Shown here: positions 9,080 to 35,643 of the stretch, in pieces | Numbering within the stretch: position 1 is the first letter of the stretch | Layout: every line of letters begins with the position of its first letter | Position numbers and translations under genes: made by a program | The notes under the pieces: generated by a model | What the model saw: the letters and a program-made list of their open reading frames with translations, nothing else | Databases searched by the model: none | Told to the model about the DNA's origin: nothing | Origin: Candidatus Mediterraneibacter merdigallinarum | GTDB taxonomy: Bacteria; Bacillota; Clostridia; Lachnospirales; Lachnospiraceae | Reading direction: 5' to 3' | Length of the DNA: 64,000 nucleotides | NCBI GenBank assembly: GCA_019117305.1 | Contig: DWZZ01000027.1 | Coordinates: 6,529 to 70,528, forward strand

Positions 9080-9084
9080 CGGTA

Positions 9085-15405: not shown

Positions 15406-15810
15406 TTATGATTTTGCTGTTTCCCAAGAATCCTGATCAAGATTTGTAGTACAATGAACATCGGTGCCACCATCAGTCCAGATGATAACAGACGTTTTAG
15501 GATACTCTTTCCATCCACCAAACAATGTCCAATATCCTGTCTCATCAGTTCCGCCATTCTGGATATAATAACCTCTGATAAAATCATCCTGAGTTGAAGC
15601 TTCATGTGTTGCATCACAAGCATGATAATAACGAGCTCTACCTTTTGTTAAATTTGTTCCATCATCAGTGTATACATCGCCTTTTGCACCACCACCAGCA
15701 TCACATTTAAACTTATAAACTGTATTCCAGTCATGACAAGCCGCTACATACTCATTAGCCTCAAACTTCTGCACCTCAGTAAGAGGTCTCTTCCAAACTC
15801 TTCCTTCCAT
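15406..15810 (-). CDS. Putative RiPP precursor A (134 aa)
   Basis: Leader VWKRPLTEVQKFEANEYVAAC, near-identical to precursor B; 4 Cys; ends in Ser (TAKS); lies between PqqD and rSAM genes. Confidence 0.75.
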   Translation of the reverse strand: MEGRVWKRPLTEVQKFEANEYVAACHDWNTVYKFKCDAGGGAKGDVYTDDGTNLTKGRARYYHACDATHEASTQDDFIRGYYIQNGGTDETGYWTLFGGWKEYPKTSVIIWTDGGTDVHCTTNLDQDSWETAKS

Positions 15811-15812
15811 TT

Positions 15813-16085
15813 TTACTCCTCCTTTAATAGACCATACTGTAAATATTCTCTTATGAAATCTTTAATTCCCTGTTCCATTTCACCATCGGGATCGGAATAT
15901 TCTTTCTTCGCTTCAGCAATCACATCTTCCATCGTCCTCGGCTGTTGGAACAGCTGCCACAGAAAGCGGCAGGTTTCATTCAGCGATATCACGCTGTTCT
16001 CAAATATCCCCGCTTCGCCGACAGGCACCAGTACGGCTTCTCCTGCCACATTTCTCAGCAGGAAATCGGGGTTTGCTTTAAACAT
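15813..16085 (-). CDS. PqqD-family RiPP recognition element (RRE), copy 1
   Basis: FLLRNVAGEAVLVP, ISLNETCRFLWQLF, EYS....MEQGIKDFI..L..YGLL; 90 aa from MFKAN. Confidence 0.88.
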   Translation of the reverse strand: MFKANPDFLLRNVAGEAVLVPVGEAGIFENSVISLNETCRFLWQLFQQPRTMEDVIAEAKKEYSDPDGEMEQGIKDFIREYLQYGLLKEE

Positions 16086-16214
16086 CCTGACGCCTTCCTC
16101 TTTTGTATTTTCCGGAAGATGCTCCTGAGAACCGGAACCGGAGAGCATCTCGGATGACTTTTCTTTTCTCTCCAATATATTCCTCCCCTGTTTACCTATC
16201 ATATCTATCTCATT

Positions 16215-16242
16215 ACTATAGCACAACTTATTTGATTGTCAA
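16215..16242 (-). promoter_or_regulatory. Sigma-A-type promoter for PqqD-precursor A-rSAM operon
   Basis: TTGACA-N16-TATAGT with extended TG on the minus strand. Confidence 0.6.
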
Positions 16243-16361
16243 TGATGAAAAACACAGTTTTTTTATAAAAAATTCACAATTTATGGGCATTTTTGAATGT
16301 TTTTACACTTTATTACATATAATTGACATTTTATTACATTTGCATCCAAATCAGGAAACCA

Positions 16362-17477
16362 TTACATTTCAGTCATCTTTTCTATTTCTTTCAAAAGCAG
16401 TTTTTTATACTCTCCCGCATATCTGCACAAATATTCCGGCAGGCCGTCGTAGTTGCCTGTCTCCAGCCAGGCGCTGGCAGCACATGTTTTACATATGGGG
16501 CGAAGCGGGCATTCTGTGCATTTATCATTAATCCTGAATTTCTTCGCCTTTTCGGATATTTCCTGCCAGGCAGCCTCAAATCCGGTTTTAAATACAGACA
16601 CGGTCGGCTCTTCCAGCGTAACGCACGGCCGCATTTCCCCCTGCCAGTTCACGGCAAAAGAACAGTTTCCTGCCATACAGGTGATGCCGGACGGATATCC
16701 GGTTACAGGCTGTTCTGTCTGTTCCAGTTTCTGTTTTACATACACCGGGAACAGCTCCGGATCCATCTCAGCCCGTATTGTCTCCAGTTCCGCCGCGGCC
16801 GCTTCCTCCGGCATCAGTCTGGCCTGTTCTTCAAAGGGCCGCCTTCTCTCATGAAGGCCGGGCAGCATATATGTATCCATATGTACCGGCGCCTCAAGCT
16901 CCCGGCCGATGGCATATATTTTCTCCATATCGCTGCGGTTGGTTCTGGTTACACTGCCGTTGATTTTCACATCCACGCCCCGATCTTTCAGCAGCCGGAT
17001 GGCGTTTTTCGCTTTCTCAAATCCTCCGGGATAATGACAGAGTTTCTCATAGGCGCTGTCGTCTGCCCCGTAAAGGGTGATGTTAATCCGCCGGGGTTTG
17101 TATCTGCCGAAAAAATCTGCCCATCCTTCGTCCAGAAGTGTACCGTTGGTATTGACAGTCAGGATCATTCCCATCTGCCTGAGCTCTACATATAGCTTCT
17201 GGAAATCAGGAAAAAGCAGCGGTTCCCCGCCGGTCAGGAGCAGGAACAGCACTCCGGCCTTCTGCATCTCCCTTCCGAGACCGATCCATTCATCTGCCGT
17301 ATGCAGCCCGCCTTTTGCCTCTGTCTCCCTGGCGCTGAGCCGCACATAACACATATCACAGTTCATATTGCAGAGGGGCAGAAGCTCCAGACTTCCATTA
17401 ATAGGCCGCTGTGCTGCCGACGCCCGGCGCAGCATCCTCTTTTCCATTGTATTCGGTTCCATCTGCATTGGATCCAT
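16362..17477 (-). CDS. Radical SAM protein with SPASM-like C-terminus, copy 2
   Basis: CNMNCDMC, LTGGEP; CMAGNCSFAVNWQGEMRPC...CTECPLRPICKTC...YLC; close paralog of copy 1. Confidence 0.92.
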   Translation of the reverse strand: MDPMQMEPNTMEKRMLRRASAAQRPINGSLELLPLCNMNCDMCYVRLSARETEAKGGLHTADEWIGLGREMQKAGVLFLLLTGGEPLLFPDFQKLYVELRQMGMILTVNTNGTLLDEGWADFFGRYKPRRINITLYGADDSAYEKLCHYPGGFEKAKNAIRLLKDRGVDVKINGSVTRTNRSDMEKIYAIGRELEAPVHMDTYMLPGLHERRRPFEEQARLMPEEAAAAELETIRAEMDPELFPVYVKQKLEQTEQPVTGYPSGITCMAGNCSFAVNWQGEMRPCVTLEEPTVSVFKTGFEAAWQEISEKAKKFRINDKCTECPLRPICKTCAASAWLETGNYDGLPEYLCRYAGEYKKLLLKEIEKMTEM

Positions 17478-17491
17478 ATTTGCTATTCCTC

Positions 17492-17537
17492 CAAAAAAAG
17501 AGCGCCCCGCCAGGAAATAATCCTGTATGTGACACTC
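17492..17537 (-). terminator. Probable intrinsic terminator between precursor B and rSAM 2
   Basis: Minus strand gagtgtc..cagga-ttatt-tcctg..ggcgctc followed by T7 (stem contains G-U pairs). Confidence 0.5.
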
Positions 17538-17574
17538 CTTGTATTTCTTTTATTCCTCTCTATGTAACTAAAAA

Positions 17575-17994
17575 TTATGAGCGGTTCGGATGGCCTTCCG
17601 CTGTGGCAAATACTGTTCCTTTATGATTCCAGGTTCTTCCGTCGGAAGCACTTGTGGTCCAGTAAATTGTATCTCCAATATCAACCGTAGACACGTCTCT
17701 TGTAGAATTATAACGTTCATCCCAATAAATGGTACAACTCAAATCTCCCAGTCCGTCTGTACCTGTTTCAATCATTCGATCCGCAATTGTATCATTATTA
17801 TCATCAAAAATCACCTGATTAGAGGAATTACCACAGTGTGCGATATCATGCGTTACTCCGTTATGATAATCTCCCTCCTGCCATTCATATCTATTTGACC
17901 AGCCCACATCACATTTCACACCCCAGCAAGCCGCTACATACTCATTCGCCTCAAATACCTGTACTTCCGTTCTCGGTTTTACCCATCTTTTCAT
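17575..17994 (-). CDS. Putative RiPP precursor B (139 aa)
   Basis: MKRWVKPRTEVQVFEANEYVAAC leader; GGGAGG RBS before ATG 17994; 4 Cys; ends in Ser (PNRS). Confidence 0.75.
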   Translation of the reverse strand: MKRWVKPRTEVQVFEANEYVAACWGVKCDVGWSNRYEWQEGDYHNGVTHDIAHCGNSSNQVIFDDNNDTIADRMIETGTDGLGDLSCTIYWDERYNSTRDVSTVDIGDTIYWTTSASDGRTWNHKGTVFATAEGHPNRS

Positions 17995-18273
17995 AATCAA
18001 TGTACCTCCCAACTATAATTCACTGTCCATTTGATAATTCTATGACAAAGCGACGTACATCGTCATTATTAATCCCTGCGAGCTGTCAGATCAATGGTGC
18101 ATTCTCATAACAACATCCGCTTTATTGCCTGAACTCAAAAAACCTTCACGGAATTATTTTACGCCAAAAAAATCTGAAATTCAAGTATTTCAATAAACTT
18201 TTTCTTTCCATCCCGAATTTCAGGTTACATCTGACTGTACATCGGGTGTATTTTTGCATTTTTGCATATTTAT

Positions 18274-19521
18274 TCACTGTATAATTTTATATTTTTTCAT
18301 CAGATCAACTCTGTGACTACCGATCTCTATACTTTCTCTGGCGTCATTATTCCCCTGCTTGCCGCTCTCCCGCAGATATTTCCAGATCCGGGATACCCAG
18401 GCTGCGGGAAGGAGGAACGGATATTTCTTCAGCCGGGGATATGTACGTTCCATATATTTTCTGTCCGGGAAAATGGAGCTTAATACATGCGCGCCCGCTT
18501 TCTTTCCCTTCCTGTCTTCACTGACTGCCTGCAGGGTAATATTGCTGCTGTGCTTTCTGCTCATACTGGAATCTCCGAATACGCCTCCGTCAATCAGATC
18601 TTCCAGCATATCCGCGCTGTCCTCTTCCAACGCGGCCCAGCTTTCCGGATAACATGCTTTTGTCTCGTCAAACAGCAGTTCTTTCTTCCCGATATCGAAA
18701 AGAGCCGCGGCAAATACATCTGCATGGATCTCTCTGCACTTTTCCAGGATATACTGCCAGTCGGTCTCAGCGCCGTGAGCCTCCGCATATCTCACAATGT
18801 CGCATACCTGCCGGATACCGAAGCCGCTGTGCAGAAAATGTTTAAACGCATGAAGGATCAGGTAGAGGAGATGATCCGTATGGCACATTGTATAAACCGG
18901 CACGCCTTTGATTTCGGTCTGTATTTTCCTGTCAAATACCTCCGCGAACATTGCGTTCAGGCCGCCGTAAGCCTCTGACTCAGAAGAAAACAGTTCCTTG
19001 TGCAGTTCGATATGAAGCATGCCTCCCACTTTGTAATAGGGAACTTCTCCTTCCGCCTCCGGATCCAGATCCGGCACCAGCATATCCATGCCGTTCTGCC
19101 GGAACACCTGATCGCACAGCTTAAACTGCTCTTCCGGTATCAATACGTCTTCATCTCCGGAGCAGCGGTAATCCGGTTCCGGATAAAGTTCCCGGCAGAC
19201 CAACCCTTTGACTACCAGCGGAGTAAGACCTTTTTCTGTCAGCCTGCTGTACAGTTCCAGGAATTCTTCTGTCTTTCTGCTCTGCGTCATCACCTGGCGG
19301 ATCACCTGCCCCTTGAGCATCTGCACCATTTCCGGCGGACACGACGCGAACGCCGGACAGGTATATACAGTTTCATATATCATCGGGAGAATCTGATGAT
19401 GCTGGCTGAGCCGGAACAGATCTGACCAGTCTTCCTCAGACATACTGTCCTCCCACAATACTTTTTCACCATTCAGGAAGCAGCGAAACGCTTCCAGCAT
19501 TTTATTACTAATCGCACTCAT
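18274..19521 (-). CDS. Nucleotidyltransferase family protein (NTP_transf_5-like)
   Basis: LVVKGL..RELYPEPDYRCSGDEDVLI, IELH, LILHAFKH, GIRQVCD. Confidence 0.87.
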   Translation of the reverse strand: MSAISNKMLEAFRCFLNGEKVLWEDSMSEEDWSDLFRLSQHHQILPMIYETVYTCPAFASCPPEMVQMLKGQVIRQVMTQSRKTEEFLELYSRLTEKGLTPLVVKGLVCRELYPEPDYRCSGDEDVLIPEEQFKLCDQVFRQNGMDMLVPDLDPEAEGEVPYYKVGGMLHIELHKELFSSESEAYGGLNAMFAEVFDRKIQTEIKGVPVYTMCHTDHLLYLILHAFKHFLHSGFGIRQVCDIVRYAEAHGAETDWQYILEKCREIHADVFAAALFDIGKKELLFDETKACYPESWAALEEDSADMLEDLIDGGVFGDSSMSRKHSSNITLQAVSEDRKGKKAGAHVLSSIFPDRKYMERTYPRLKKYPFLLPAAWVSRIWKYLRESGKQGNNDARESIEIGSHRVDLMKKYKIIQ

Positions 19522-19722
19522 CTTTATATGTACCTTCTTTGTTCTGTTTTTTACTGATTCTGGTAATATGCATGCATGAGTCCGGGCATCGCTGCCCTCA
19601 ATGGTATTTTATACTAGTATTGTTATATTTTTCCAGTATTTTCTTCCAGAAATTTCCAGAGGAACTGTCTGAATATTTTTTTGAACAGTCACTGATTTTC
19701 ATTTCATCTTCGAAGTAGAACT

Positions 19723-19767
19723 ATTTTATCACCAAAAAAAGGAGGAAACCTCATACCTGAGCATGAG
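19723..19767 (-). promoter_or_regulatory. Extended -10 (TGnTAAAAT) plus inverted-repeat box CTCATAC-N4-GCATGAG, embedded in the luxR terminator hairpin
   Basis: -10 at 19723-19728; box at 19750-19767; 21-nt gap identical to the sites at 26029 and 36458. Confidence 0.55.
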
Positions 19768-19784: not shown

Positions 19785-19793
19785 CATCGTTTT

Positions 19794-22172
19794 CTAATCC
19801 TGAAGAATCCCTGTTTCCCGCGCTTTCTGCACGGCCTGTATCCGGGTAGTAACTCCCAGTTTTTTATAAATATTATAAATGTGACTCTTCACAGTAGAAA
19901 GCCGGATGTTCATTGTTTCTCCGATTGCCGCGTTGCTGTATCCTTTTTCAAGATATCGCAGCACCATCAGCTCTGTCACTGTCAGTTTTTCCACCCGGTA
20001 TATATTCTGCTGATCCTCTGTAAGATCCAGATAATGTTTCTTCTGCCGCCCTGCCTTTCTGATAATATAGTCAATCCAGTCTTCCAGGGGCATTTTCAGG
20101 ACGCTTCCGTATTTATATTTTTTCTTTTTCTGATGATACAGAATATCCGAACTCTCTATCCATTTTCTGTGCTCCTCCAAAAGCTCCGCGCCTCTCTTGC
20201 CGTATCCCGTATAGAGTCTTACATAGCGGCACGGATTGGCTGCCGCCAGGGATTCGGCTGTTGTTTTCAGAGCCTGTCCGTTTTCTCCCCGCTCCCGCTC
20301 CGCAATTGCTCTCTGAAAAAGGGTCTCTGCCAGCCACCGCCTGTTCTTGTTTTTTTCAAAATAAGGGATCAGCGTCTGGAGAATACTTTCGGCCTGGCTG
20401 TAATTTCCCAGATACATATTGATCTTCACTTCGGCAGTCAGATAAAACCTTGTCTTTCCCGCGTCGTTTCCAATGTCTCCTCCGGTCTCCCGGATCCACC
20501 TCATCAGATCTTCCTTTTCTCCCCACCTTGCTTCCGCCAGATAGTAAAGCGCCCTGGCGTTCCACCGGCAGATCTGTGATTCTTCATTTGCCAGAGAGGT
20601 CGCCATTTCACGGATATATTTCCGCACATGGTCCTGGGGCGCCTCCCCGTCCGCGAACAGGTAGGCGAGATACATAACGCCCAGCCGGATCTGCCACAGT
20701 GTGTCCTCTGCCGTTTCCGGCATATCTTCCAGCCATTTCCCGCTGCGGACACGGGCCGCGTCTGTCTGATAATCATATTCCATCCTTGCCAGCCGGTACG
20801 GAATATGGTTTTCCTGATCCAGACGTTCCTCCCACAGCCTCTGATATTTTTCCCTTTCCTTTTTTTCACAGGCAAACAATTCCGAGAGATCTCTTATTCC
20901 GCTCAGATAAGATACCGATTCTCCCAGCATATAATACAGCCGCACAGGATGCTCCGGATCGGTCTTTTCCCGTAGCAGTTCCATCCACTCCTTTGCGGTA
21001 ATCTCCGGATCAGTATATGCTATATTCAGGCAGATCTCCGTCATTCTGCGCCCGGCGGCTTCATCCTGCGGCGGATGTTCCATGATATCCGGCAGGCGCT
21101 GTCTCAGCCGTTTCATCTGTACAGTATCCTGCCGCAGAACTGCATCCATCCACCTGATATAAAACAGTTCCGGTATCTCTCTGTCTTCTTCCGGCCTGCC
21201 CGGATCGTCATAATTCAGAAATGATATTTTGTCATAATTTCTTATCAGGCAGTCCCGATATTCCTCTTTATCCTGGCGGTACCAGCAGCACGCCAGCGCG
21301 TCCTGAATACGCCCGTGTTCCTCATACCACGCCACTGCTTTCCCGCACAGTTCCTGAGATGTATATCTGTCAACCGCTATGCGAAGCGCAGGCTGTACAT
21401 GCCAGGACTCCCTGCCGGGGACATAAACCATCGCCCCGCGCGCGAACAGCCGTTCTTCCAGCTCTCTCTCCGGATCTTCCCAGAGTACTTCAGACAGTTC
21501 TCTGTTCAGATATGAAAATGCCGCCCGCTCCTTCAGTACACGCAGTTCCTCAGCCGGCATGCTCTTCAGAATCTTTTCCCGTATATACCTTCGGATCTCA
21601 TATCTGCTGCAAAGCTCCCACGCTGTCCAATGGGTTCCCAGCTGCTTCTCCAGACGCACCAGCATGGCGATACAGCCGGCCCATCCCCCTGTCAGATACT
21701 GTACTTCCCGGTAATGCAGGCTGCTCCGGCATTCTTTCAGATACCGGTAGGTCTCTGCTTCCGTAAACCAGAAGCTCTCAGGCAGGACCGCCGCCATGAT
21801 GCCGTTCCAGACAAATTCCAGGAAACTCTCAGGCATCATTCCATCTGCAGCGAGAAAAATCCGATCCTCTCCGGGCATCCTTTGTATGAATCTCCAGAAG
21901 CCCTGGCCCGAATCGGGATACCGGTTCTCCTGCGGCTTCCGGATCAGATACCAGTTTTTACTGTCCTGTTTTCTTTTTTCCAGAGCGCTCAGATTTTCTA
22001 TCTCTTCTACAGAACAATACACCGGATTTATTTCCGGATGCTTTTCAAGCAGAATCCGTACCGCTGTTTTTTTCCCCGTTCCGGGCAGGCCGATCAGGCA
22101 GACTGCAAGATGCTCTTTCAGCAGCTCTTCTATTCGCGCAGTCTTGTCGATGGTCACATTTCTAAAATTCAT
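19794..22172 (-). CDS. MalT-like large ATP-binding LuxR-family transcriptional regulator
   Basis: N-terminal GLPGTGKKT, F...E..Y, TGGWAG; C-terminal LTVTELMVLRYL..GYSNAAIGETMNIRLSTVKSHIYNIYKKLGV HTH. Confidence 0.9.
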   Translation of the reverse strand: MNFRNVTIDKTARIEELLKEHLAVCLIGLPGTGKKTAVRILLEKHPEINPVYCSVEEIENLSALEKRKQDSKNWYLIRKPQENRYPDSGQGFWRFIQRMPGEDRIFLAADGMMPESFLEFVWNGIMAAVLPESFWFTEAETYRYLKECRSSLHYREVQYLTGGWAGCIAMLVRLEKQLGTHWTAWELCSRYEIRRYIREKILKSMPAEELRVLKERAAFSYLNRELSEVLWEDPERELEERLFARGAMVYVPGRESWHVQPALRIAVDRYTSQELCGKAVAWYEEHGRIQDALACCWYRQDKEEYRDCLIRNYDKISFLNYDDPGRPEEDREIPELFYIRWMDAVLRQDTVQMKRLRQRLPDIMEHPPQDEAAGRRMTEICLNIAYTDPEITAKEWMELLREKTDPEHPVRLYYMLGESVSYLSGIRDLSELFACEKKEREKYQRLWEERLDQENHIPYRLARMEYDYQTDAARVRSGKWLEDMPETAEDTLWQIRLGVMYLAYLFADGEAPQDHVRKYIREMATSLANEESQICRWNARALYYLAEARWGEKEDLMRWIRETGGDIGNDAGKTRFYLTAEVKINMYLGNYSQAESILQTLIPYFEKNKNRRWLAETLFQRAIAERERGENGQALKTTAESLAAANPCRYVRLYTGYGKRGAELLEEHRKWIESSDILYHQKKKKYKYGSVLKMPLEDWIDYIIRKAGRQKKHYLDLTEDQQNIYRVEKLTVTELMVLRYLEKGYSNAAIGETMNIRLSTVKSHIYNIYKKLGVTTRIQAVQKARETGILQD

Positions 22173-22178
22173 ATCCTG

Positions 22179-23555
22179 TTATACTCCGTTCAGAATTCCT
22201 CCGATCAGGTGGACACGGCTCTCTGCCAGTTCTTCCAGACCGTCCATAATATGAGATGTGCCTGCATAATCCTTTTTGATAACGAATAATGCACTGTCTG
22301 CATACTGCGCGAGTACGCCTGCATCTGTCAGCATGCCGGCCGGAGCGCTGTCCAGTATCACAATGTCCACTTTTTTCTCAAGTACCTCAATGATCTTCCA
22401 CATTCTCTCTCTGCCGAGAAGTCTGGAGCCGTCTTCCACCGCCCTGCCGCCGGGAAGAAAATAAAATCTGAATTCATCATCCATCCCCAGGGCTCTTCCC
22501 GTTATCAGTACATCATGAAGCTTTGCCTCACCCGACAGAACTTCATATAATCCCGGTCCTTCCTCCATGCCGAATATCCGGCGGTTTGAAGGGTTGCGCA
22601 GATCACAGTCAATTAACGCGGCGCGCTTTCCGTTCCGGGCAAACGAGAGCGCCAGATTCACTGCCAGCGTACTTTTCCCTTCTCCTGCAAGAGCGCTTGT
22701 TACCAGTATGGTCTTTGAATGATGTCTCCATACGCTGTATTCGACTTTACTTCGAATCATCTGCAGCGCTTCCTCAAATCCGGGATCTGTTTTTTCATTC
22801 AGAATGTTAATAATATGCCCGTTGTCCCGGCTTCTCCTTTTCATGGCAATCTGGGGAATCTCCCCGAGGCATTTCATATTTGCCCGCTTCTGGAAATCTT
22901 CTTTTCTTTTTATAGTATTTCTGCTCAGCATCACTGCGCCCGTCCAGATCAGGCCAAGCGCGCAGCCCGCCGCGGCGCCTTTTACCGCATCCCGGGAACT
23001 GTTTCTCGGATTGTCCGGATATGCCGGGATTCCGGTCTCATCCAGCAGTTCCATATTCGTCCTCCCCAGAATCACTTCTGACACTTCAGGGTAACATTCA
23101 ATTACCGCCTGGAGCGTCCTGTAGGCCAGCTCGGCGTCCGTATCTGTCACGGACAAAGTGAACAGATTAGTGTTTTCTTCAGAAGACGCCGCAATCTGTC
23201 CGCTTACTGCAGGTCTCCCCATCGTCTCGGCAGCGCGCCGCGACAGCACGCCGCTGGTCAGAATATATGGGAACGTATTTACCATCTGCTCAGTCGTTGA
23301 ATTGTCGTAAAAGCTGTAGGACCCTTCTGTCTGTGACATGCCGTCCTGACTTGCGGTAATCGTAAAAGTGGCAGAAGCCGTATAAACCGGCGTATATGCC
23401 ATCCAGCTTCTGGCATAGGAGAATATGCCCCCGGCGGCTGCCAGAATCAGAACCCATATCCACATACGGCGTAGCGTCCTCAGATAATCTGTTAGTATAC
23501 CGACAATATCAATTAATCCCTCTTCCCGGTTCTTTTCCTCGTTTTGTGTATTCAT
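22179..23555 (-). CDS. Wzz-BY-kinase fusion, copy 3 (no Tyr tail)
   Basis: AGEGKST, IDCDLRNPS, ILDSAP; ends GGILNGV with no tyrosine cluster. Confidence 0.88.
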   Translation of the reverse strand: MNTQNEEKNREEGLIDIVGILTDYLRTLRRMWIWVLILAAAGGIFSYARSWMAYTPVYTASATFTITASQDGMSQTEGSYSFYDNSTTEQMVNTFPYILTSGVLSRRAAETMGRPAVSGQIAASSEENTNLFTLSVTDTDAELAYRTLQAVIECYPEVSEVILGRTNMELLDETGIPAYPDNPRNSSRDAVKGAAAGCALGLIWTGAVMLSRNTIKRKEDFQKRANMKCLGEIPQIAMKRRSRDNGHIINILNEKTDPGFEEALQMIRSKVEYSVWRHHSKTILVTSALAGEGKSTLAVNLALSFARNGKRAALIDCDLRNPSNRRIFGMEEGPGLYEVLSGEAKLHDVLITGRALGMDDEFRFYFLPGGRAVEDGSRLLGRERMWKIIEVLEKKVDIVILDSAPAGMLTDAGVLAQYADSALFVIKKDYAGTSHIMDGLEELAESRVHLIGGILNGV

Positions 23556-23573
23556 ATCCGTTTCATAGCCCTC

Positions 23574-25103: not shown

Positions 25104-25123
25104 TCATTACTTTCCTTCCTCAG

Positions 25124-25918
25124 TTATCTTACAATCACAATCAGTCTGCTCTTCCCCATAAGACCGTCTTCCGTTACTGTATAATCCACATAGTATGTCC
25201 CCGCCTGGGACGTATCCACATTTGATTCGATATCAGGTTCCCCTCCTGCTTCAGACTCCTGAAAATAGTCGGAAGCACGGAAAGAGTCATTCACATTCAG
25301 GTAGACAAGATAAGAAGTCAGCGTTACTTCCAGCTGCTCGTCTCTCGGATCATACACTTCCAGTTCTGTCGGAAGATAAGATGTATTTCCCGCGCTGTCT
25401 GTCACCCGGAATTCAATCTGATACGTTCCCGGAGCAGATGCCGATACCGTTCTGTCCAGATTATATTTAATATTATTGGAAAGATTTCCGTCCAGACTGC
25501 TCTCTGCGGATATTCCGGAACAAATATTAAAAGATGTGCCCATAGGGAAACGGAGCGGCGCACTCAGAGAAAATGTCGGCATCTGATAATCCGTATACTC
25601 CAGCTGTCTGCTGTAATATCCCACATTTCCGCTGCTGTCCGCCGCAGCATAATTCACAATGCGTCTTCCTTCTTCATCAAATCCTGAGATTGACTGCACT
25701 ACCAGAGACTCCGTCACATCTCCGCCCCTGTCGTCTTCCGCACGCATCCCTTCCAGCAGCTTTTCTTCGGGATCGGCCACACTCGCCTGAATCAGTCCTT
25801 CTCCGGTAATTACCGGAGGCGTGTGATCCGTCACAGCACCGTCATATACTCTGCACCCCGCATAAACCGCGGCAGAAAAGAGAAACAGGATGATGCTGAA
25901 AATCTTAATCTTTTTCAT
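25124..25918 (-). CDS. Membrane-anchored Ig-like repeat (DUF5011-like) protein, copy 2
   Basis: TM, TPPVI, AEDDRGGDVT, GTY.V.Y motifs; paralog of 9085-9948. Confidence 0.7.
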   Translation of the reverse strand: MKKIKIFSIILFLFSAAVYAGCRVYDGAVTDHTPPVITGEGLIQASVADPEEKLLEGMRAEDDRGGDVTESLVVQSISGFDEEGRRIVNYAAADSSGNVGYYSRQLEYTDYQMPTFSLSAPLRFPMGTSFNICSGISAESSLDGNLSNNIKYNLDRTVSASAPGTYQIEFRVTDSAGNTSYLPTELEVYDPRDEQLEVTLTSYLVYLNVNDSFRASDYFQESEAGGEPDIESNVDTSQAGTYYVDYTVTEDGLMGKSRLIVIVR

Positions 25919-27688: not shown

Positions 27689-30600
27689 TTACCAGCTGAA
27701 TAATGATTTGAAGAAATCAGTAACCGTATTTACCACTGACTTAATCGCATTGCCCAGTTTTGTAAAGAAGCCTTCATCATTGCTTCCTTCCGGTTCCTCA
27801 GCCTCTGCTTCAGAAGCGCTAAATTCTACGCTTTCCGACTCACCGTATGCCACTTCCACATCACTGTACTCTGCATCGGTCAGTTCATAGCCTTCCGGCA
27901 GGATTCCCTCTGCCACTGTCTGTATATCTGCTGCGGCAAATGTGTGAGTCTCGCCCACTGTACCGTTTGCCGTAAGGACTGTCTCTGCCACAGCATTGCC
28001 GTTGGCATCGACTACGTTTACTGTCAGCGCGGCGTCCGCCGTCTCAACAGTCTCTGTCTCGTCGGCAATACACTGAAGCGCAAACGCCATCGTATCAGCG
28101 TCGATTGTAAACAGTGACGCACCGCCTGCTTCATATACAGGATTTGTCACCTTGATCTTTGTAAGGGCAAGTACGTTCTCGCCTCTATTTTCGATAACAA
28201 TCATGCCATCATTCGGCTCTACTTCATAGTACATATCTACTGTAGAGGACAACGTACTTTCTGGCTGATCATTAATCTGATAGCTCACCGTACCGCTGTT
28301 CAGGCTTCTCATTCCGACTGCCACTTTATCATATGCTGACGCCGTCAGTCTCATGGCAATCGTCTGTCCCGATTTGAGATAAATCTCGTTCTTCGGACCG
28401 TTATTGATCATATCCGCGTCTGCCGTAACCTCGTTTCCAGCCCCGAGAATCACCGCTCCCGAGCCGTTATTCGAAGCATCATAGACCGCGCTGATAATAT
28501 TTTCACCGTACTTGTACCAGTCGTCAATATCTGCCAGATCGTAGGTGCTTCCTGCAATCGTAATATCACGGACTTCCGCTGTAAGAGCCTGGTCTTCCTG
28601 ATCAGCAGCATAAACGCTCTCATATGCATCGCCCTGCGTATGATATACGCGGAAGCCGTCCAGTGAGATCTCACCGCTGTTCACAATAATCTTCACTGTG
28701 TACGTTCCGGCTGTAAGATCCTTATAGCTGAATACCGGCGTGTTGTAGTAATTTCCATTATTTTCTTCCAGCCAGTTATTTGCGGTGTCTACATATCCCA
28801 GTTTGAGAAGAGTTCCGTCGGTTCCCTCGCCCTCGTACAGCCACAGGCTCATGCTGCCGGATGACTGTGTCGTCAGTGCGTAGATATCCAGACCTGTACC
28901 GTTGAATGTAAATGTTGCTGTGCCATTCTTTGTACTGCTTACCGCAGCAGTATTGTTGCTGTTTCCATTTGCAGAAGCATACAGATCGTCATAACCATAC
29001 AGATCAACTGTCTCATCATCTGCGACGCTTACTGTCTGGTTTTCGGTTACGGCTGAACCAGGTGACCAGCTGCCGTCATAGGAGGCAAATCCTTCCTCAT
29101 AGTATACGCTTGATGCCGGGTAGACTGTGAATGTATAAACAGCGCCCCGCTCATTTGTGATTCGGACGGTATCCGCTTCTGTAAGTACAGCGTTCGGTGT
29201 ATATGTTACTTCCATTCCGTTTGTCTGAACGGTTCCGAAGTTTGCGCTGCCGCTCACAAAATTATAACTTGTTTTTCCTGTAAAGTCGACTGTGATCGGT
29301 GAACCGAAGTCGATGATATAGTCGTCCGGATCGAAGGTAAGGACGGATACCTCGGCAACCGCCTCAGCCTCTGCCGTCAGTTCACCGGTACTGTAAGCCG
29401 CCCGATATCCATAAGAAAGACTTACTGTATTCGTGATCATACTATCCAGATCAGAATCCCGGACGGTATACTCGGCTTCATACAGAAAATCTCTCGCAGG
29501 TGCCGGATCCCCGCTCGTTCCCAGATCACTGGTAATGTTCTTCGATGTCGTTCCATCTGAAAATTCCGCTCCGCTCAGCAACTCTCGCAACTGAGCATTA
29601 CTATACACTATGCCGTATTCCGTCTCATAGCGGTGTACGGTAATGTCATAAACAAGTGTATCGCCTGGGTAAATCTGCATACCTTCTGTATAATCTACAG
29701 TCTCTCCACTATGGATAACTGACTTAATAGATTTTTCCAGGCTGGGCAGTCTCTCTGAAATAACATTGATAATTGCCTGACAGCTATTTGTTGCATCAGT
29801 ACCTCTGGTAAACCAGAAACCGCCATCAGCGCCTAACTCTTTAGCGCCCTGCAGCATAGCAATGATTTCGTTATCTGTATAAAGATGAGTATCCTCGTTA
29901 TTCAACGATCCTTTATTTTGGAAGAACGTCGTCTGACGCATATTGCTGTAATCCTGAATTGCATACCAATTCGTCTGATCCAAATTATTAGCCGCACTCA
30001 TATAGGTTAATGCATAATTTTCGTCCACCGGTGCGCCAAAAAATGTCATAGCCCAAGCCGCTTCTGTACTGATGTAAATAGCGGTATCTGCAAAAACCTC
30101 TTTATATTCGCCTTCATCATTCTGTACATAGTACAATCTGGAGTCTTGGATCTCATTAACATAAATTTCTACAATTCGTTCCCCATTATCCGAAGGTCTA
30201 GAATTTTCATATATAGGTTCGATATCCAGAACCGTAACTGTCGCAGAATGACGTCCTACAATATTTCCTTCTTCATCTGTAATCTCTGCGATAACCACAG
30301 TTTCTCCCGGGGTTACTCCGGTTACTGTACCATTCTGACCTACTGTGGCAATACTAGCATTCTCACTTTTCCATGTCACATTATAACCATCTGCACCATT
30401 GAGATTCAGATCATAAGATATACCTGGTGTTAAAATCAGATGGGAAACCGTTTTTCCCCTGCTGTATGTTGTATCTCCAGTATTGGATACAAAACTCAGA
30501 TCTCCAATATTACTGAAATCTCCATCCGGAATTTCTGTAACTGTAATATTATACGTTCCTGCTCCTACAACAACAGTAGTTGTTCCTGCCGCCACACCTG

Positions 30601-33331
30601 TGATCGTCATAGTATTACCGTCAATCACTGCTGTCGCAAAAGTTTCATCCGGTCCCTGAGTCATTGTTCCGTCTACTGTGACTGATATACTCTGTCCCAC
30701 TGCTACAGAAAGCTCTTCCGTAAACGGTTTTCTCTGCAATGCGGCAATTGCTTCTGCAATTCTCTGTGCTGCCTGGTCAATAGTATTCTGTGCTGCCTGC
30801 GCTTCACTCTCAGAAGAATACTCAGAAGAAGATAAGCTCTCTGCAGCTTCTACCGCATCCTGTAAGACGTTCCAGGAATCTGTTGTATAGTTATCTGCTG
30901 TCAAATCATTTGCAGCATTGATCTGTTCCTGCAGCTTGCTGAGGTCGGTAGACCAGGAGGGATCTTCGGTGGTTTTACGGTAGAGGGAGACTGTGGATGC
31001 AGTATTGGATGGTTCAAACCCTTCTCCCATTCCCATAAAACCACTATTATAATGTAAATATCTATTAGATCCATAAATAGTATATCTTCCATTACTACCG
31101 TCCAACAAACAGATTTGTTCCGTTGTATCCAGTGTTTTTGATTCTACACTCCATCCGCTTCTTTCATAATGTAAATAAATATATGCATTTGTATTTCTGA
31201 TAGTAAACCGATCACCTGAACCCTCGAATGTCCAGAGAAGATGGTCATCATTGCTTTCGTTTACATTTGTGACTTCATTTCCGCTGACTGTTACATCTCG
31301 GTCGCCTGTAGAAGTCTCTCCGTCCGTATTCTCCAGAGCATGCCCGTCATAAACGATCAGGTATTGTCCTCCATTATCAATTCCATCCGTATCAAGCACA
31401 TAGCTCGTTCCGCCGGGATTCTGGGTGATCGATCCGGTATATGCTTCATCCACACCACTCACAGTTACCGTCAGTTCATATTGGCTTCCGTCTTCCACGC
31501 TGCGGCTGTTTGTCTGCACAGTCGCTGTGATTGTCGCTGTTCCTGCACCAACCGGTGTAACAGTAACACTGCTGCCGTCAGCTTTTGCCGTCGCTACAGT
31601 CTCACTGCTTGTCGTGACTGTAAGATACTGGCTATCAGATAAGCCGCGGAATTCCACAGTCTTTTCTCTGTCTGTAGCAGCAAAATTCAGGCTGTTGATA
31701 AGCGTTCCGTCCTCCGATACAAATCCCGGATCCGGATCGCCGATCTGCGCGTCTTTTGCCAGATTCTCAATCTGGAAATTCGTATACTGGATACTTGCGC
31801 TGCCGTTTTCATACAGGAGTCCCACAGAACCATCACTCAGCTCCGTCAGGCAGGAATACTGGAATGTTCCATTCGTAACAGCGGTTGCAGAAAAACTGTT
31901 GAAGTCCATGGTTCCATCATCATTCACAAGTCCCACAAAAATTTTCCCTGCACTTCTGCTTCCCCAGCTACTATCAGTCGGGCAGGAAAGAAGAATCGCT
32001 TCCTTGCCATTGATTGTCTGGGAATATTTTAATGCTGAAATCTGGCAATTGGAGTTATTGCTGACTTCCGTCTGCATAATGCTTCCCCAGATATATCCCT
32101 CATCAGCATTTCCTGTGGCATCCACATAGCAGATCTGGTTACTGCCGTTTCGGAAAAACATACGGATTGTACCATCATTCAGCTCTACCAGCTGGTTCTC
32201 ACTGGACCAGGTGCCTCCTGTAGCATTTTCTGTTCTTTCCCATGTCTCGCCGCCGTCTGTGGAATAGATAAAGCTGCTCCTCTGGGAGCTATCAGTTCCA
32301 TTCCATTCGTAAGCAGAAAATAGAATCGTACCATCACTGGTCACAATACCGGTTCCCGGTCCCACACCGTAAAACTGCTCATCGTCTGCCTTCACATTGA
32401 TCAGAGTCGGAGCTGACCATGTCGCACCCTTATCTGTGGATTTTGTCAGATACAGATAGGAAGTCTTCACTACCTGATAAGGAGAATCTGAAAAGAACAG
32501 ATTGCTGACTTCTACATCTCCCTGGTACAGGTTGAAATACTCATCCACCGTGTAGTCTTCTACAGCATTTCCATCAGCGCCAAAGATCTGTGCACGGCCA
32601 TTCTCAAATTCGCCCAGATAATAGCTGTAATCGCTGCTGCCGGACTGGGCCAGTTTCAGCTGTCCCTGCTCATCAAATGCCGCTGCCGCCTCAGGCTTCT
32701 GATTGGATGAGTTCAGCGCCACACCGCCCGGGAACAGATCTGCCAGCATATAGATTGTACTGCCGTCTGTAGCCAAAGCCGGGTCAATAAATGTTGCAGA
32801 TTCTTTTACATAGGCATTTCCATTATCTCCCAGATAATTGGCAAATGTATAGTTCCAGTTTGCTCCATTATCAGATGAACGGGAAACTATCGTATCCAGT
32901 CCGCCCGCATCTGCTGAAGTATTCCATCTTGCATCCGCTGCCGCAATGATAGTGCCGTCATCCAGCGTTACTATTGCGGGGATGCGGAAGTTCTGGCTTC
33001 CTCCTGTCCCTGCTGCAAAGGGCTGTCCGCTTGTTGTTCCGTCAGCCGGCTTGTCTGACACATTACTGCGGACCGCCGGCTCAGACTCATCGCTTTGAAC
33101 AGCCGCGCCATCGTCCTCCGAAGTAGCAGCTTCTTCTGTATCCTGTCCCTCACTGCTGTCAGGAACATCAGCCGTGTTGTCTTCTGTGCCCGTCTCAGTC
33201 TCTGTCTGGATATCCTGAGTCTGGATGTCACTCTCAGAGTCTGTTCCCACAGCAAATGTCTGCATGCCCATACTCAGAACCATCGTCAGAGTCAGCAGCA
33301 GCGCGAGAAAACGCTTTTTCGTCTTCTTCAT
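27689..33331 (-). CDS. Large secreted multidomain GH33 exo-alpha-sialidase (Ig-like/Big, FIVAR and unknown domains), 1880 aa
   Basis: Signal peptide; NFRIPAI; Asp boxes SSDNGANW, STDKGATW, STDGGETW; SENQLVE; QYSCL; FIVAR YTTDSWNVLQDAV; Big_2-like VTWKSENASIATV. Confidence 0.88.
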   Translation of the reverse strand: MKKTKKRFLALLLTLTMVLSMGMQTFAVGTDSESDIQTQDIQTETETGTEDNTADVPDSSEGQDTEEAATSEDDGAAVQSDESEPAVRSNVSDKPADGTTSGQPFAAGTGGSQNFRIPAIVTLDDGTIIAAADARWNTSADAGGLDTIVSRSSDNGANWNYTFANYLGDNGNAYVKESATFIDPALATDGSTIYMLADLFPGGVALNSSNQKPEAAAAFDEQGQLKLAQSGSSDYSYYLGEFENGRAQIFGADGNAVEDYTVDEYFNLYQGDVEVSNLFFSDSPYQVVKTSYLYLTKSTDKGATWSAPTLINVKADDEQFYGVGPGTGIVTSDGTILFSAYEWNGTDSSQRSSFIYSTDGGETWERTENATGGTWSSENQLVELNDGTIRMFFRNGSNQICYVDATGNADEGYIWGSIMQTEVSNNSNCQISALKYSQTINGKEAILLSCPTDSSWGSRSAGKIFVGLVNDDGTMDFNSFSATAVTNGTFQYSCLTELSDGSVGLLYENGSASIQYTNFQIENLAKDAQIGDPDPGFVSEDGTLINSLNFAATDREKTVEFRGLSDSQYLTVTTSSETVATAKADGSSVTVTPVGAGTATITATVQTNSRSVEDGSQYELTVTVSGVDEAYTGSITQNPGGTSYVLDTDGIDNGGQYLIVYDGHALENTDGETSTGDRDVTVSGNEVTNVNESNDDHLLWTFEGSGDRFTIRNTNAYIYLHYERSGWSVESKTLDTTEQICLLDGSNGRYTIYGSNRYLHYNSGFMGMGEGFEPSNTASTVSLYRKTTEDPSWSTDLSKLQEQINAANDLTADNYTTDSWNVLQDAVEAAESLSSSEYSSESEAQAAQNTIDQAAQRIAEAIAALQRKPFTEELSVAVGQSISVTVDGTMTQGPDETFATAVIDGNTMTITGVAAGTTTVVVGAGTYNITVTEIPDGDFSNIGDLSFVSNTGDTTYSRGKTVSHLILTPGISYDLNLNGADGYNVTWKSENASIATVGQNGTVTGVTPGETVVIAEITDEEGNIVGRHSATVTVLDIEPIYENSRPSDNGERIVEIYVNEIQDSRLYYVQNDEGEYKEVFADTAIYISTEAAWAMTFFGAPVDENYALTYMSAANNLDQTNWYAIQDYSNMRQTTFFQNKGSLNNEDTHLYTDNEIIAMLQGAKELGADGGFWFTRGTDATNSCQAIINVISERLPSLEKSIKSVIHSGETVDYTEGMQIYPGDTLVYDITVHRYETEYGIVYSNAQLRELLSGAEFSDGTTSKNITSDLGTSGDPAPARDFLYEAEYTVRDSDLDSMITNTVSLSYGYRAAYSTGELTAEAEAVAEVSVLTFDPDDYIIDFGSPITVDFTGKTSYNFVSGSANFGTVQTNGMEVTYTPNAVLTEADTVRITNERGAVYTFTVYPASSVYYEEGFASYDGSWSPGSAVTENQTVSVADDETVDLYGYDDLYASANGNSNNTAAVSSTKNGTATFTFNGTGLDIYALTTQSSGSMSLWLYEGEGTDGTLLKLGYVDTANNWLEENNGNYYNTPVFSYKDLTAGTYTVKIIVNSGEISLDGFRVYHTQGDAYESVYAADQEDQALTAEVRDITIAGSTYDLADIDDWYKYGENIISAVYDASNNGSGAVILGAGNEVTADADMINNGPKNEIYLKSGQTIAMRLTASAYDKVAVGMRSLNSGTVSYQINDQPESTLSSTVDMYYEVEPNDGMIVIENRGENVLALTKIKVTNPVYEAGGASLFTIDADTMAFALQCIADETETVETADAALTVNVVDANGNAVAETVLTANGTVGETHTFAAADIQTVAEGILPEGYELTDAEYSDVEVAYGESESVEFSASEAEAEEPEGSNDEGFFTKLGNAIKSVVNTVTDFFKSLFSW

Positions 33332-33391
33332 CTCTGTTTGTTCCTCCTTACTTGAAATAGTTTTATATAAAAGGTAGTATTATCTACACTT

Positions 33392-34513
33392 TTACAGGTT
33401 CAACCGGAAAGACGCCTCCTTCCGAAGTGCATTCACTATCCGGCATAAATATCCGGGAGTCTTTTCAAATTCTCCCGTTTCCGCAAACGCCATTGCGGCG
33501 CATGCATGACAGATCTTCTGGCTTTCACACCGGGAGCATGTTCCCGACAGTCTGATCTGTCCCGTCAATTCGGTTAATTCTTTCCATGCTTCACTGAAAT
33601 TTCTTTTCCGCACCGATACGCCCGGCCGCTCCATCATCCCGCAGGGACGCATCTCACCGTGCCAGGTCACCCAGAATGTTGCCCTTCCTGCCCGGCATCT
33701 GACAGTCCCGTCGGGAACTGCCTCCTGACATTCCTCCAGACTCACAGGCATACTGCCCTGCAGTATCTGACGGGCAAATGGTTTCACCGCATCCTCTCCA
33801 TACTGGAGCCTGCGGATCTCAAACATATAATGCGCGGTCTCTTCCGGTGTAAAGCGGTTATTTTTCCCGATATTTTCCTCACCCCGGCGTATAGCCGGAA
33901 ACATATAGGATGCGATTTCCAGAATCAGTCCCCGCTCATCTGCAAACCGGATCATTTCTTCCAGATCGCATACATTATATGGAGTCAGACTGCAGTTCAG
34001 CTTTACGGAAATTCCCGCTTTCTGCAGGCCTTCAATCGCATGTTTCACCCGCTCATAACTGTCTGCCCTTCCGCACAGTTTTTCATAAGTATCCCCTGAA
34101 GCCCCGTACAGAGTAATATTTATCCTGCATGGAGGCCTGTCCTTCAGCCAGCGGATCACATCATCATCGATCAATGTCCCGTTGGTGTTGATCGAGAGTA
34201 TAAATCCCATGCCTGCCAGTTTCTCATACAGCTCACGGAATCCCGGATGGAGAAACGGCTCGCCGCCTGTCAGCAGCAGATAGAGCATTCCCTGCCCCTT
34301 CGCTTCTTCTGCAAGCTTCAGCCACTCGTCATTGCTCATCATAATAAGCCCGGATTCCCTGACCTGCTGTGCCGTCATATGCACGTAACACATCCGGCAG
34401 TTAAAATTGCAAAGAGGCGACAATTCAAAAGTCCCGTTGATCGGTGTGTGCTCTCTGGCCGCTTTTGCAAATAAATATGAAGTTACCTGAGGTTCTACGT
34501 AAGTCCCTTTCAT
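33392..34513 (-). CDS. Radical SAM protein with SPASM-like C-terminus, copy 3
   Basis: CNFNCRMC, LTGGEP; CRAGRATFWVTWHGEMRPC...CSRCESQKICHAC...YLC. Start MKGTY (34513) is coupled to the kinase stop. Confidence 0.92.
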   Translation of the reverse strand: MKGTYVEPQVTSYLFAKAAREHTPINGTFELSPLCNFNCRMCYVHMTAQQVRESGLIMMSNDEWLKLAEEAKGQGMLYLLLTGGEPFLHPGFRELYEKLAGMGFILSINTNGTLIDDDVIRWLKDRPPCRINITLYGASGDTYEKLCGRADSYERVKHAIEGLQKAGISVKLNCSLTPYNVCDLEEMIRFADERGLILEIASYMFPAIRRGEENIGKNNRFTPEETAHYMFEIRRLQYGEDAVKPFARQILQGSMPVSLEECQEAVPDGTVRCRAGRATFWVTWHGEMRPCGMMERPGVSVRKRNFSEAWKELTELTGQIRLSGTCSRCESQKICHACAAMAFAETGEFEKTPGYLCRIVNALRKEASFRLNL

Positions 34514-35379
34514 CTGTCCATTCCCAGCTCTTTCCTGACATTTTCTACGGCACGGATATCCGGCGGACATATCATCTCATATATCGGAATTGCCGAAATC
34601 ATATCCTTAATCACGGACGACACGGTATTTACCGCATAGGCATTCCACTGATGGACGGTCACATTTCTGTATACTTCACGAAACGCTTTTGTCCCTGCCA
34701 TTCTCTGTATACTTATCTCATCTTCTCCGCCGCGTTTTACAGACATCACAGCCCGGATCGGGACATTTTTATTTACATAATATCCGGATGAGCCGGCATA
34801 GGGCGATCCATACGCTTTCCAGATACCGCAGGAATCTCTGTTTACAAAAGCTCTGTCACCGTTTATAATCTCTGCCCCGGCGTATTGCCGCCAGAGATCG
34901 GCTCGTGTAGATTTTCCCGCGCCTGACGGTCCCATAAACAGAATTCCTTCGCCCGATACATCAATCAGGGCCGCGTGCAGAATCACGGTTTCCAGTCCGG
35001 CATATATATTATCTATGCCAATCCATCCAAACAGCTGTTCCATCTTCTGAAACTGCCGCAGGCCACGTTCCAGATAACAGATCGTCTCCCGGCAGCCTTC
35101 ATAGTCCAGATATGCTTTTGCGAACATCTCGCCGCACAGTCCCTCATGGAATACCTGAACAATCCCATCTGACTCTTCATGCGCCGAGATCCTGCTGTCA
35201 TAGTCATTCGAAATATTCGGCGTCTGTGGATGTGACAGATGATCTGTCTTTTCAAAACATATTGTAAAATCAGGTTTATTCCCTTCTGTTTTGAACTGCT
35301 CGATCTTATCCGATATTTCAGGCTCAAAATCTGCAGATATTTCCAGGATCCGTCCTGCTATGTAATACTGTCTTTTCAT
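34510..35379 (-). CDS. HPr-kinase-like P-loop kinase, copy 2
   Basis: ILHAALI, GPSGAGKST, INGDRA, YGSPYAGSS. Confidence 0.75.
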   Translation of the reverse strand: MKRQYYIAGRILEISADFEPEISDKIEQFKTEGNKPDFTICFEKTDHLSHPQTPNISNDYDSRISAHEESDGIVQVFHEGLCGEMFAKAYLDYEGCRETICYLERGLRQFQKMEQLFGWIGIDNIYAGLETVILHAALIDVSGEGILFMGPSGAGKSTRADLWRQYAGAEIINGDRAFVNRDSCGIWKAYGSPYAGSSGYYVNKNVPIRAVMSVKRGGEDEISIQRMAGTKAFREVYRNVTVHQWNAYAVNTVSSVIKDMISAIPIYEMICPPDIRAVENVRKELGMDR

Positions 35380-35385
35380 GATTTA

Positions 35386-35643
35386 TCAGGATATGAAGAC
35401 AAATGTATTTGACCCGCCCTCGGTGTAACAGTACATATCTTCGCCGTCAACGCTACAAGCACCTGCCAGATCGGTATAGAATAAATCCGGCGGCGCTATC
35501 GATGAAGAACCTGGTTTAGGATCTGCATCACATCCGTTACGTATAGCCTGATTACTCACCATAAGGTTCTGGCAGGCGGCAATATGCTGGCTCAGTTCAA
35601 AGTTCTCAATGACTGCCAGCGGTTTTTGGTATACCTTTTTCAT
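35386..35643 (-). CDS. Putative RiPP precursor C (85 aa)
   Basis: MKKVYQKPLAVIENFELSQHIAAC leader; 4 Cys; ends in Ser (VFIS); AGGAGG RBS. Confidence 0.75.
   Translation of the reverse strand: MKKVYQKPLAVIENFELSQHIAACQNLMVSNQAIRNGCDADPKPGSSSIAPPDLFYTDLAGACSVDGEDMYCYTEGGSNTFVFIS

Follow-up and report, generated by a model that had tools for sequence, protein, structure and literature searches.

What is made by a locus in which small Cys-containing proteins are encoded beside radical S-adenosylmethionine (SAM) enzymes, kinase-like proteins and capsule genes? The window analyzed here is a stretch of 64,000 nucleotides (nt) from Candidatus Mediterraneibacter merdigallinarum (Lachnospiraceae; assembly GCA_019117305.1, contig DWZZ01000027.1, positions 6,529 to 70,528), and it encodes three such small proteins, A, B and C (Table 1). 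Our analysis suggests that they are probably precursors of a radical-SAM version of the phosphoserine pathway known from linear polyphosphorylated peptides (LPPs) and from the lasso peptide paeninodin, in which the leader and a Ser tail stay constant around a core that can be exchanged. This reading is carried by the gene set, the conservation of leader and tail, the replacement of cores in frame, and the sorting of radical SAM clades by core class. If, as is likely, the neighboring enzymes cross-link, phosphorylate, trim and export the precursors, the locus would be a variable surface or signalling mini-protein system.

Three precursor genes with one leader

An earlier note, made from the DNA letters and their reading frames, described A, B and C as precursor-like proteins with a leader of the type bound by the recognition element (RRE) of RiPPs, peptides that are made by the ribosome and modified after translation. 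The description holds: leaders and tails are as quoted there, all three genes are on the minus strand, and each follows a GGAGG-type ribosome site. For B, the start is most likely the ATG at 17994, which stands behind the ribosome site and gives 139 amino acids (aa), rather than the TTG at 18012. The leader consensus is [W/Y]xxPxxxVQxFxxNEYVAAC, with WxxP in A and B and YxxP in C. A regular expression for the leader found 22 frames among 43,795 frames of the genome, and by eye only A, B and C are gene-like with the full leader; a leader profile search of the genome gave exactly three matches, again A, B and C. The core lengths given in the note (110, 117 and 62 aa for A, B and C) are correct when counted from the Cys of AAC. 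Each protein does have four Cys, but this total includes the AAC Cys, so that three follow AAC.

The leader DNA of A and B had been called near-identical. This is true of a 20-nt patch that is exact at 15737 and 17927, but the whole leaders agree at only 44 of 60 nt. The window has the patch at these two places only; in a longer version that stops at the Cys codon, 28 of 29 nt agree. As the note also observed, A and B are richer in AT than the neighboring enzyme genes (GC 0.40 and 0.43 versus 0.51–0.54). GC at fourfold-degenerate sites (GC4) is 0.11 in the A core and 0.39 in the B core, versus a genome median of 0.56, and the share of cytosine at two-fold sites is 0.06 and 0.18, with 0.51 in a GAPDH fragment. 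The silent sites are AT-rich in a way that would fit import from AT-richer donors. High expression was considered as the source of this bias and is ruled out by the two-fold site pattern, for which the reference is the GAPDH fragment only; L2, S2, L12, GroEL and EF-Tu were searched for as codon references and were not found in the assembly. Across loci, precursor GC is below radical SAM gene GC in 60 of 64 cases.

The gaps between A or B and the radical SAM gene that follows each contain a hairpin, and there is no strong hairpin after C (z -1.0). With hairpins in these positions, the precursor transcript would exceed the enzyme transcript. The locus is present in RNA-labelled sequencing runs, which, as contigs, are silent on expression level and strand.

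The terminal serine

The earlier note proposed that the C-terminal Ser is invariant. Whole-sequence homolog counts are not independent of the tail. We used a tail-blind rule, under which relatives are chosen by leader alone, and 98 of 103 distinct proteins end in Ser. Of the remaining five, four end in S-W (two), S-I and S-T; the fifth is a frameshifted copy that has HPNRS at the end of its other frame. The Ser is near-invariant rather than invariant, being penultimate or absent in some distant classes. When tails are trimmed, the cores fall into 13 clusters, with Ser last in 11 and penultimate in 2. Terminal Ser is found in 19 of 515 other gene products (a control that contains a few off-frame rows) and in 29 of 376 small frames that have a ribosome site and lack the motif. 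By whole-sequence homology, terminal Ser is found in 120/121 for A (the best 120 of 788 plus the query), 117/120 for B (the best 120 of 482) and 37/37 for C (query counted). In the alignments of A and of B, no other column has Ser in more than 90% of the rows; the terminal one reaches 0.99 in both.

Two loci contain broken precursor copies, with a frameshift or an internal stop (L028:9474-9960 and L018:8500-9000). Truncated forms, which also occur in a search of cluster representatives, may reflect assembly error or real inactivation.

Core families and predicted folds

Each core is a large conserved family rather than free sequence, with 788 homologs for A, 482 for B and 36 for C. The families are distinct, in agreement with the note's view that the cores are largely unalignable: A and B align over the leader only, and their core profiles do not align (probability 0.7%). 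Both families have invariant Cys, His, Trp and Gly; the Cys and His are C25, C36, C65 and H69 in the A family, and C23, C28, C54 and H124 in the B family. Cys number differs from four in 10–19 of 121 A homolog counts. A W...H pattern near the C-terminus is common to both core families (40/41 and 42/42) and hints at a remote, unproven kinship of the A and B cores.

AlphaFold2 models of A and B are compact and beta-rich, with mean pLDDT of 79.8 and 82.3; the leaders score 53–59 and the cores mostly above 80. The term “modified mini-proteins”, used in the note, fits these models, in which both proteins are predicted to be folded. Foldseek searches with A and B gave no match at E ≤ 0.001, and the best VIA-align results (A, Z 3.6, rmsd 2.0, 44 aligned; B, Z 3.6, rmsd 17.3, 97 aligned) do not amount to a fold match. 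Pfam and NCBIfam have no family for A, B or C, and in the Atlas, A and the 233-aa protein encoded nearby match only unnamed Bacillota clusters. StsA was considered for the A family and set aside, as a single weak match among 115 A homologs (E 0.003) was taken as chance. Of the two outcomes that the note named as counting against its reading, an unconserved terminal Ser and cores that match known, unrelated domains, neither was observed. A missing fold match does not prove that the folds are new. Nonetheless, cores of 110–117 residues that are predicted to be folded, beta-rich domains without a fold match are a new feature.

Exchange of cores between strains

The note suggested that the cores are exchangeable variable cassettes, and contigs from close strains bear this out, with the core of A or B replaced in frame (“replaced” meaning under 85–90% alike). 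In run X16, a 3,828-nt contig has 20 differences in 1,787 nt over 15809-17595 and 4 in 379 nt over 17922-18300, with 347 other letters where the window has 17596-17921; a second X16 contig of similar depth has A with 0 differences. In X10, from another study, the same two B breakpoints recur within 3 nt, with 350 letters for 329. A 7,084-nt contig of X15 keeps the B core whole (99 differences in 2,564 nt) and has 289 other letters for 15457-15736, and a further X16 contig, from a more distant relative, breaks likewise at 15736. The four length changes (+21, +21, +9 and -3 nt) are all multiples of three. On one side the break is at the Cys of the leader (residue 25); on the other it is 6 or 16 residues short of the C-terminal end.

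In X1, a loose contig end looks like a further HPNxS-class allele (ETAKS, HPNxS and PNAS are class labels coined in this analysis), and the swapped cores are therefore probably distant alleles of the same class. The contigs, which are from Logan, could be chimeric, but the same out-and-back switch sites in different studies argue against this. Divergence is also seen across species: at syntenic loci with ABC exporters 88–94% identical, A-slot cores are 33–57% identical to A, and other syntenic A-slot cores are of PNAS type and ~25% identical to A. A family scan of the 29 locus proteins found no recombinase, which makes homologous recombination the simplest route. With leader DNA and tail DNA as anchors, such recombination would carry cores from strain to strain and from species to species. 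Locus DNA is carried by chicken-gut runs. At the rSAM1 position of X15, 61 nt match rSAM2 exactly, within 5ʹ parts that are alike in the two genes (15200-15260 and 17334-17394), which suggests gene conversion between paralogs.

What is the functional significance of core exchange? That close strains exchange cores in frame suggests that phages, hosts or kin exert a pressure to diversify. One explanation is that A, B and C are free, secreted mini-proteins resembling bacteriocins or polymorphic toxins, and that core swapping shifts their target range. The ABC exporter and a candidate leader peptidase would serve such proteins, and core turnover is strong, codon use is foreign-like, and in one B allele 8 of 12 changed codons alter the residue (16 of 17 differences listed). 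However, there is no candidate immunity gene in the precursor-rSAM gaps, which measure 76 nt (A) and 97 nt (B), and the swaps replace the core only. Moreover, the cores are acidic, with much Asp, Thr and Gly, and capsule genes lie beside the cassette in 16 of 30 genera. We consider this explanation improbable.

Pairing of radical SAM enzymes with precursors

A further new feature is that the clade of a radical SAM enzyme goes with the core class of the precursor beside it. In a FastTree tree of 126 enzymes labelled in this way, ETAKS requires 7 label changes (34 when shuffled) and HPNxS 9 (32 when shuffled); ETAKS versus HPNxS alone gives 4 changes in 77 rows, and short versus long classes gives 2. 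The three enzymes of the window fall in three clades, and paralogs within a genome sort by precursor. At two loci where the slot holds a PNAS-type precursor, the enzyme comes from a separate clade. We infer that cores swap within a class under one radical SAM enzyme, and that a change of class usually brings a new enzyme. All three window enzymes have the seven-Cys SPASM motif; rSAM1 and rSAM2 have an extra (eighth) Cys, absent from rSAM3, that may be a ligand at the otherwise open site on auxiliary cluster 1. Four loci, from Anaerostipes and others, have 2–4 precursors with different cores near one radical SAM gene.

These data bear on a second explanation, in which A and B are small proteins that bind metal or form disulfides, with the Cys and His as ligands, and the radical SAM enzyme acts on another substrate, such as a sugar. 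The invariant Cys and His, the confident folds predicted without any modification, and the homologs whose Cys number differs from four are all compatible with this. Nevertheless, loci found with rSAM2 have a leader match in 67 of 71 cases, mostly directly upstream of the radical SAM gene, and enzyme clades follow core class, with A-slot PNAS-type precursors accompanied by a different clade. A role for A and B apart from the radical SAM enzymes is, in our view, very improbable.

Comparison with known systems

The locus is the toolkit of LPPs and paeninodin-type lasso peptides plus paired radical SAM enzymes, applied to protein-sized, exchangeable cores. The study of the LPP system (LppA/K/B/S/D/N; Popov et al. 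2026, PMC13381572) describes a similar set of parts: a discrete RRE, a SipW-like peptidase, an HprK-like kinase, an NTP transferase, an MsbA-like exporter and a capsule locus, with 1–3 precursors of 35–200 aa that have a conserved N-terminus, a variable C-terminus and a [Y/W]xxP leader. The two window homologs of the HprK-like kinase score below family cut-offs and have GD in place of DD. In that study, the SipW-like peptidase cleaves in an RRE-dependent manner and Ser+3 is polyphosphorylated; the discussion states that the role of LPPs and paeninodins, and the reason for their location in capsule loci, are unknown. By eye, the window peptidase and RRE resemble the rows of cluster 4 in that paper's sequence similarity network (SSN), for which no precursor is listed.

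There are also clear differences. The leader consensus of A, B and C departs from the LPP motif YxxPxVLxHQxIxFETxxS, and the Ser+3 acceptor has no counterpart: A and B have no conserved Ser near the core start and have an invariant Cys there. The distance from the aromatic residue of the leader is 18 residues for the LPP Ser and 19 for the invariant Cys of the A/B/C family. Since Cys occupies roughly the place of the LPP Ser, and the only strongly conserved Ser is terminal, the likeness with respect to Ser is to paeninodin and pseudomycoidin. In addition, the window has three radical SAM enzymes, whereas the word “radical” occurs 0 times in the main text of the LPP study (PMC13381572). One locus (L122:7646-7900 and 10331-10585) encodes two 84-aa precursors that have a WKKP leader and Ser at the position of the family's invariant Cys; a link to LPP-type Ser acceptors is possible.

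Paeninodin and pseudomycoidin (PadeK, ThcoK, PsmK, PsmN) share with the window a WxxP leader, a discrete RRE, a C-terminal Ser, an NTP transferase and an ABC exporter. Lasso-type kinases phosphorylate the C-terminal Ser of precursors, and PsmN adds a hexose to the phosphate (PMC9266682, PMC6993621); A, B and C have a terminal Ser at this place. In contrast, the cores of A, B and C are 62–117 aa and contain Cys, versus 15–30 aa for lasso cores, and the window kinases have an H-K-GD motif in place of H-K-DD. No lasso cyclase (PF00733) or B2 protease (PF13471) was found among the 29 locus proteins or in the genome (88.8% complete).

A radical SAM enzyme with a seven-Cys SPASM motif beside a Cys-containing precursor is also typical of ranthipeptides and sactipeptides (PapB, CteB and Tte1186; PMC10177961). 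However, the window enzymes score far below NCBIfam cut-offs (PapB, 49 bits versus 340), their RRE is a separate gene, most long-class enzymes have an eighth Cys, and a kinase, an NTP transferase and an S26 peptidase are added. Lastly, all profiles of the SynChlorMet cassette (NCBIfam TIGR04248-04251; ScmC kinase-like, ScmD PqqD-like, ScmE/F radical SAM) match the locus, but the best scores for ScmC, D, E and F are 33 versus 125, 22 versus 100, 88 versus 400 and 74 versus 400 bits. In the literature searched we found no paper on this cassette, which is a name without a mechanism, and no paper that joins the parts described here; most subscription journals were outside the search.

A proposed pathway and its weak points

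How would the parts act together? We propose that PqqD binds the [W/Y]xxP leader; a complex prediction for PqqD1 and the A leader was uninformative (0.35; control, 0.50). The radical SAM enzyme beside each precursor would then cross-link its own precursor class, most likely in the leader-proximal Cys region, with a thioether as the default product. The HPr-kinase-like protein would phosphorylate the terminal Ser, the S24/S26 peptidase would cleave just ahead of the conserved Cys, the NTP transferase would add a sugar to the phosphate, as PsmN does, and the ABC transporter would export the product.

Several observations weigh against this pathway, and the main doubts concern the GD motif of the kinase and the radical SAM chemistry. 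Most long-class enzymes (37/40 and 29/37) have the extra SPASM Cys, and this residue could occupy the open position on which thioether enzymes rely (PMC10177961). Kinship inflates the tree statistic, which comes from FastTree only, with no independent-pairs correction, and one locus (L056) is a counter-example to the pairing. Eight loci with radical SAM, kinase and PqqD genes have no precursor nearby, and a search of 5 of those genomes found no convincing precursor elsewhere. With regard to the tail, the matches listed include 7 distant short precursors: Ser is the last residue in 3 and the second-last in 2, and the other 2 end in KGPK(K). The L122 pair, with AAS in place of AAC, ends in CLA. 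Only 51 of 150 proteins end in Ser in a search of 50%-identity representatives; among representatives of at least 120 aa the count is 36 of 46, with 6 more penultimate, and most shorter rows are truncated or frameshifted by eye. LppN was inactive in the LPP study (PMC13381572). The eight loci without a recognizable precursor nearby (L120, L121, L123–L126, L131 and L132) form a well-supported radical SAM clade that has PqqD, kinase and ABC genes in capsule loci; its substrate may have another leader type.

The kinase raises a third explanation: processing and export of the precursors take place, but the GD-type protein has no Ser kinase activity, and the terminal Ser or carboxylate is modified otherwise, by direct nucleotidylation or by glycosylation, for example at the N-x-S with which some classes end. 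N-x-S is the N-glycosylation sequon. Many tails have this form (PNRS, PNHS, PNAS). Both window kinases score below family cut-offs, and a comparison of the kinase with PDB sequences gave no match. Of 83 kinase homologs, 72 carry GD at the site of the DD of lasso kinases, and loss of DD abolishes PsmK activity (PMC9266682, PMC6993621). Nonetheless, 75 of the 83 homologs retain both the His and the Walker A Lys, and no partner is more constant than the kinase, which is present in 27 of 30 genomes. Furthermore, ETAKS, FIS and WTS tails have Ser without Asn. We consider an inactive kinase unlikely, and we favor phosphorylation of the terminal Ser.

Attachment of the product to the capsule is speculative; it is proposed only because of the gene neighborhood and the PsmN precedent. 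It is possible, if doubtful, that gut Clostridia have a coat of radical-SAM-stapled mini-proteins with new folds, tied to the capsule through Ser, phosphate and sugar and varied by swapping of core domains. If so, a RiPP pathway would serve as a system for protein-to-polysaccharide anchoring and surface variation. If the pathway takes unrelated folded domains between its fixed leader and Ser tail, it could also be put to use to phosphorylate or glycoconjugate proteins site-specifically at the C-terminus. The cassette is common, its protein-sized products are easy to tag and track, and cultured strains carry it, among them Anaerostipes butyraticus JCM 17466, Sellimonas caecigallum JCM 35759 and Merdimonas faecis BR31; hence, the purpose of the phosphoserine is directly testable.

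Spread of the cassette and neighboring genes

With rSAM3 as query, matches were found in 30 of 300 genera sampled from the family of the window (E ≤ 1e-40). In these 30, chosen by radical SAM alone, the kinase is found in 27, PqqD in 21, ABC in 21, the NTP transferase in 17, Wzc in 16 and the peptidase in 14; the regions are up to 20 kb and many are cut by contig ends. Among 45 loci of at least 17 kb found with rSAM2, 35 have the kinase, 27 Wzc, 22 the peptidase and 21 the NTP transferase. When 400 genomes from the whole phylum were searched with a 20-row leader profile, 10 had a match, and in 9 of these the match was next to the same gene set. The leader is common to 1,248 protein clusters (50% identity), and the nearest named loci are from Lachnospiraceae, for example Mediterraneibacter.

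On the minus strand, the genes run in the order PqqD2, 233-aa protein, C, kinase 2, rSAM3, 1880-aa BNR-repeat protein and GDSL esterase; then an Ig-like gene, two Wzz/Wzc-like genes, a MalT-like regulator, the NTP transferase, B, rSAM2 and PqqD1; and then A, rSAM1, kinase 1, the ABC exporter, the S24/S26 peptidase and the capsule genes from CpsB to the glycosyltransferase. The Ser/His/Asp motifs of the S24/S26 peptidase are GSSM, MHR and GDAQ, with TIGR02228 at E 5e-6, below cut-off.

Table 1. Positions of the precursor genes, their partners and other features in the window.
Feature	Position	Strand	Remarks
Precursor A, 134 aa, ETAKS core class	15406..15810	(-)	leader 1-24; Cys25/36/65/120; terminal Ser134
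Precursor B, 139 aa, HPN(R/H)S core class	17575..17994	(-)	Cys23/28/54/87; terminal Ser139
Precursor C, 85 aa, short four-Cys class	35386..35643	(-)	terminal Ser85
Radical SAM/SPASM 1 (rSAM1)	14199..15329	(-)	directly downstream of A; clade of ETAKS-adjacent enzymes
Radical SAM/SPASM 2 (rSAM2)	16362..17477	(-)	directly downstream of B; clade of HPNxS-adjacent enzymes
Radical SAM/SPASM 3 (rSAM3)	33392..34570	(-)	downstream of C and kinase 2; clusters with enzymes that adjoin short precursors
Discrete RRE (PqqD) 1	15813..16085	(-)	PF05402 E 2e-11
Discrete RRE (PqqD) 2	36652..36993	(-)	PF05402 E 1e-15; limits of reading frame, true start probably further in
HPr-kinase-like (ScmC-like) protein 1	13349..14206	(-)	TIGR04249 E 5e-8, below cut-off; His, Walker A Lys, NGDR
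HPr-kinase-like protein 2	34510..35379	(-)	PF07475 E 4e-5, below cut-off; His, Walker A Lys, NGDR
NTP_transf_5 nucleotidyltransferase (PsmN/LppN-like), DxD	18274..19521	(-)	PF14907 E 2e-54
S24/S26 (SipW-like) peptidase, candidate leader peptidase	10883..11365	(-)	PF00717 above cut-off
MsbA-like ABC exporter	11427..13220	(-)	ABC membrane and ATPase domains
Capsule/exopolysaccharide (EPS) genes: CpsB phosphatase, Ig-like, two Wzz/Wzc-like, LCP ligase family, CapD-like, priming glycosyltransferase	959..10724	(-)	
Membrane-anchored 233-aa protein, family unassigned	35660..36361	(-)	co-occurs with short-class cassettes
1880-aa secreted BNR/sialidase-like protein	27689..33331	(-)	C-terminal region recurs beside short-class precursors
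Terminator-like hairpin, A-rSAM1 gap	15358..15386	(-)	z -4.0
Hairpin with U-run, B-rSAM2 gap	17497..17542	(-)	z -3.5
A segment swapped in frame (Cys25 to residue 118)	15457..15736	(-)	contig 96% identical, run X15
B segment swapped in frame (residues 25-133)	17596..17921	(-)	contigs ~98-99% identical in flanks, X16 and X10

The Ig-like gene and two Wzz/Wzc-like genes are present in two copies (6136-9948 and 22179-25918). All four Wzc-like genes of the assembly lie within the window, and three have tails rich in Tyr and Gly. The MalT-like LuxR regulator (19794-22172) is directly upstream of the NTP transferase gene, a position kept in 12 of 71 loci. A 1496-aa secreted protein with an LPXTG-like C-terminal anchor is encoded at 40573-45063. 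At nine other loci, large secreted proteins are encoded beside short-class cassettes or, in one case, a YQLS cassette. These proteins share residues ~1330-1750 of the 1880-aa protein of the window, and several have an amphipathic tail rich in Phe and Trp.

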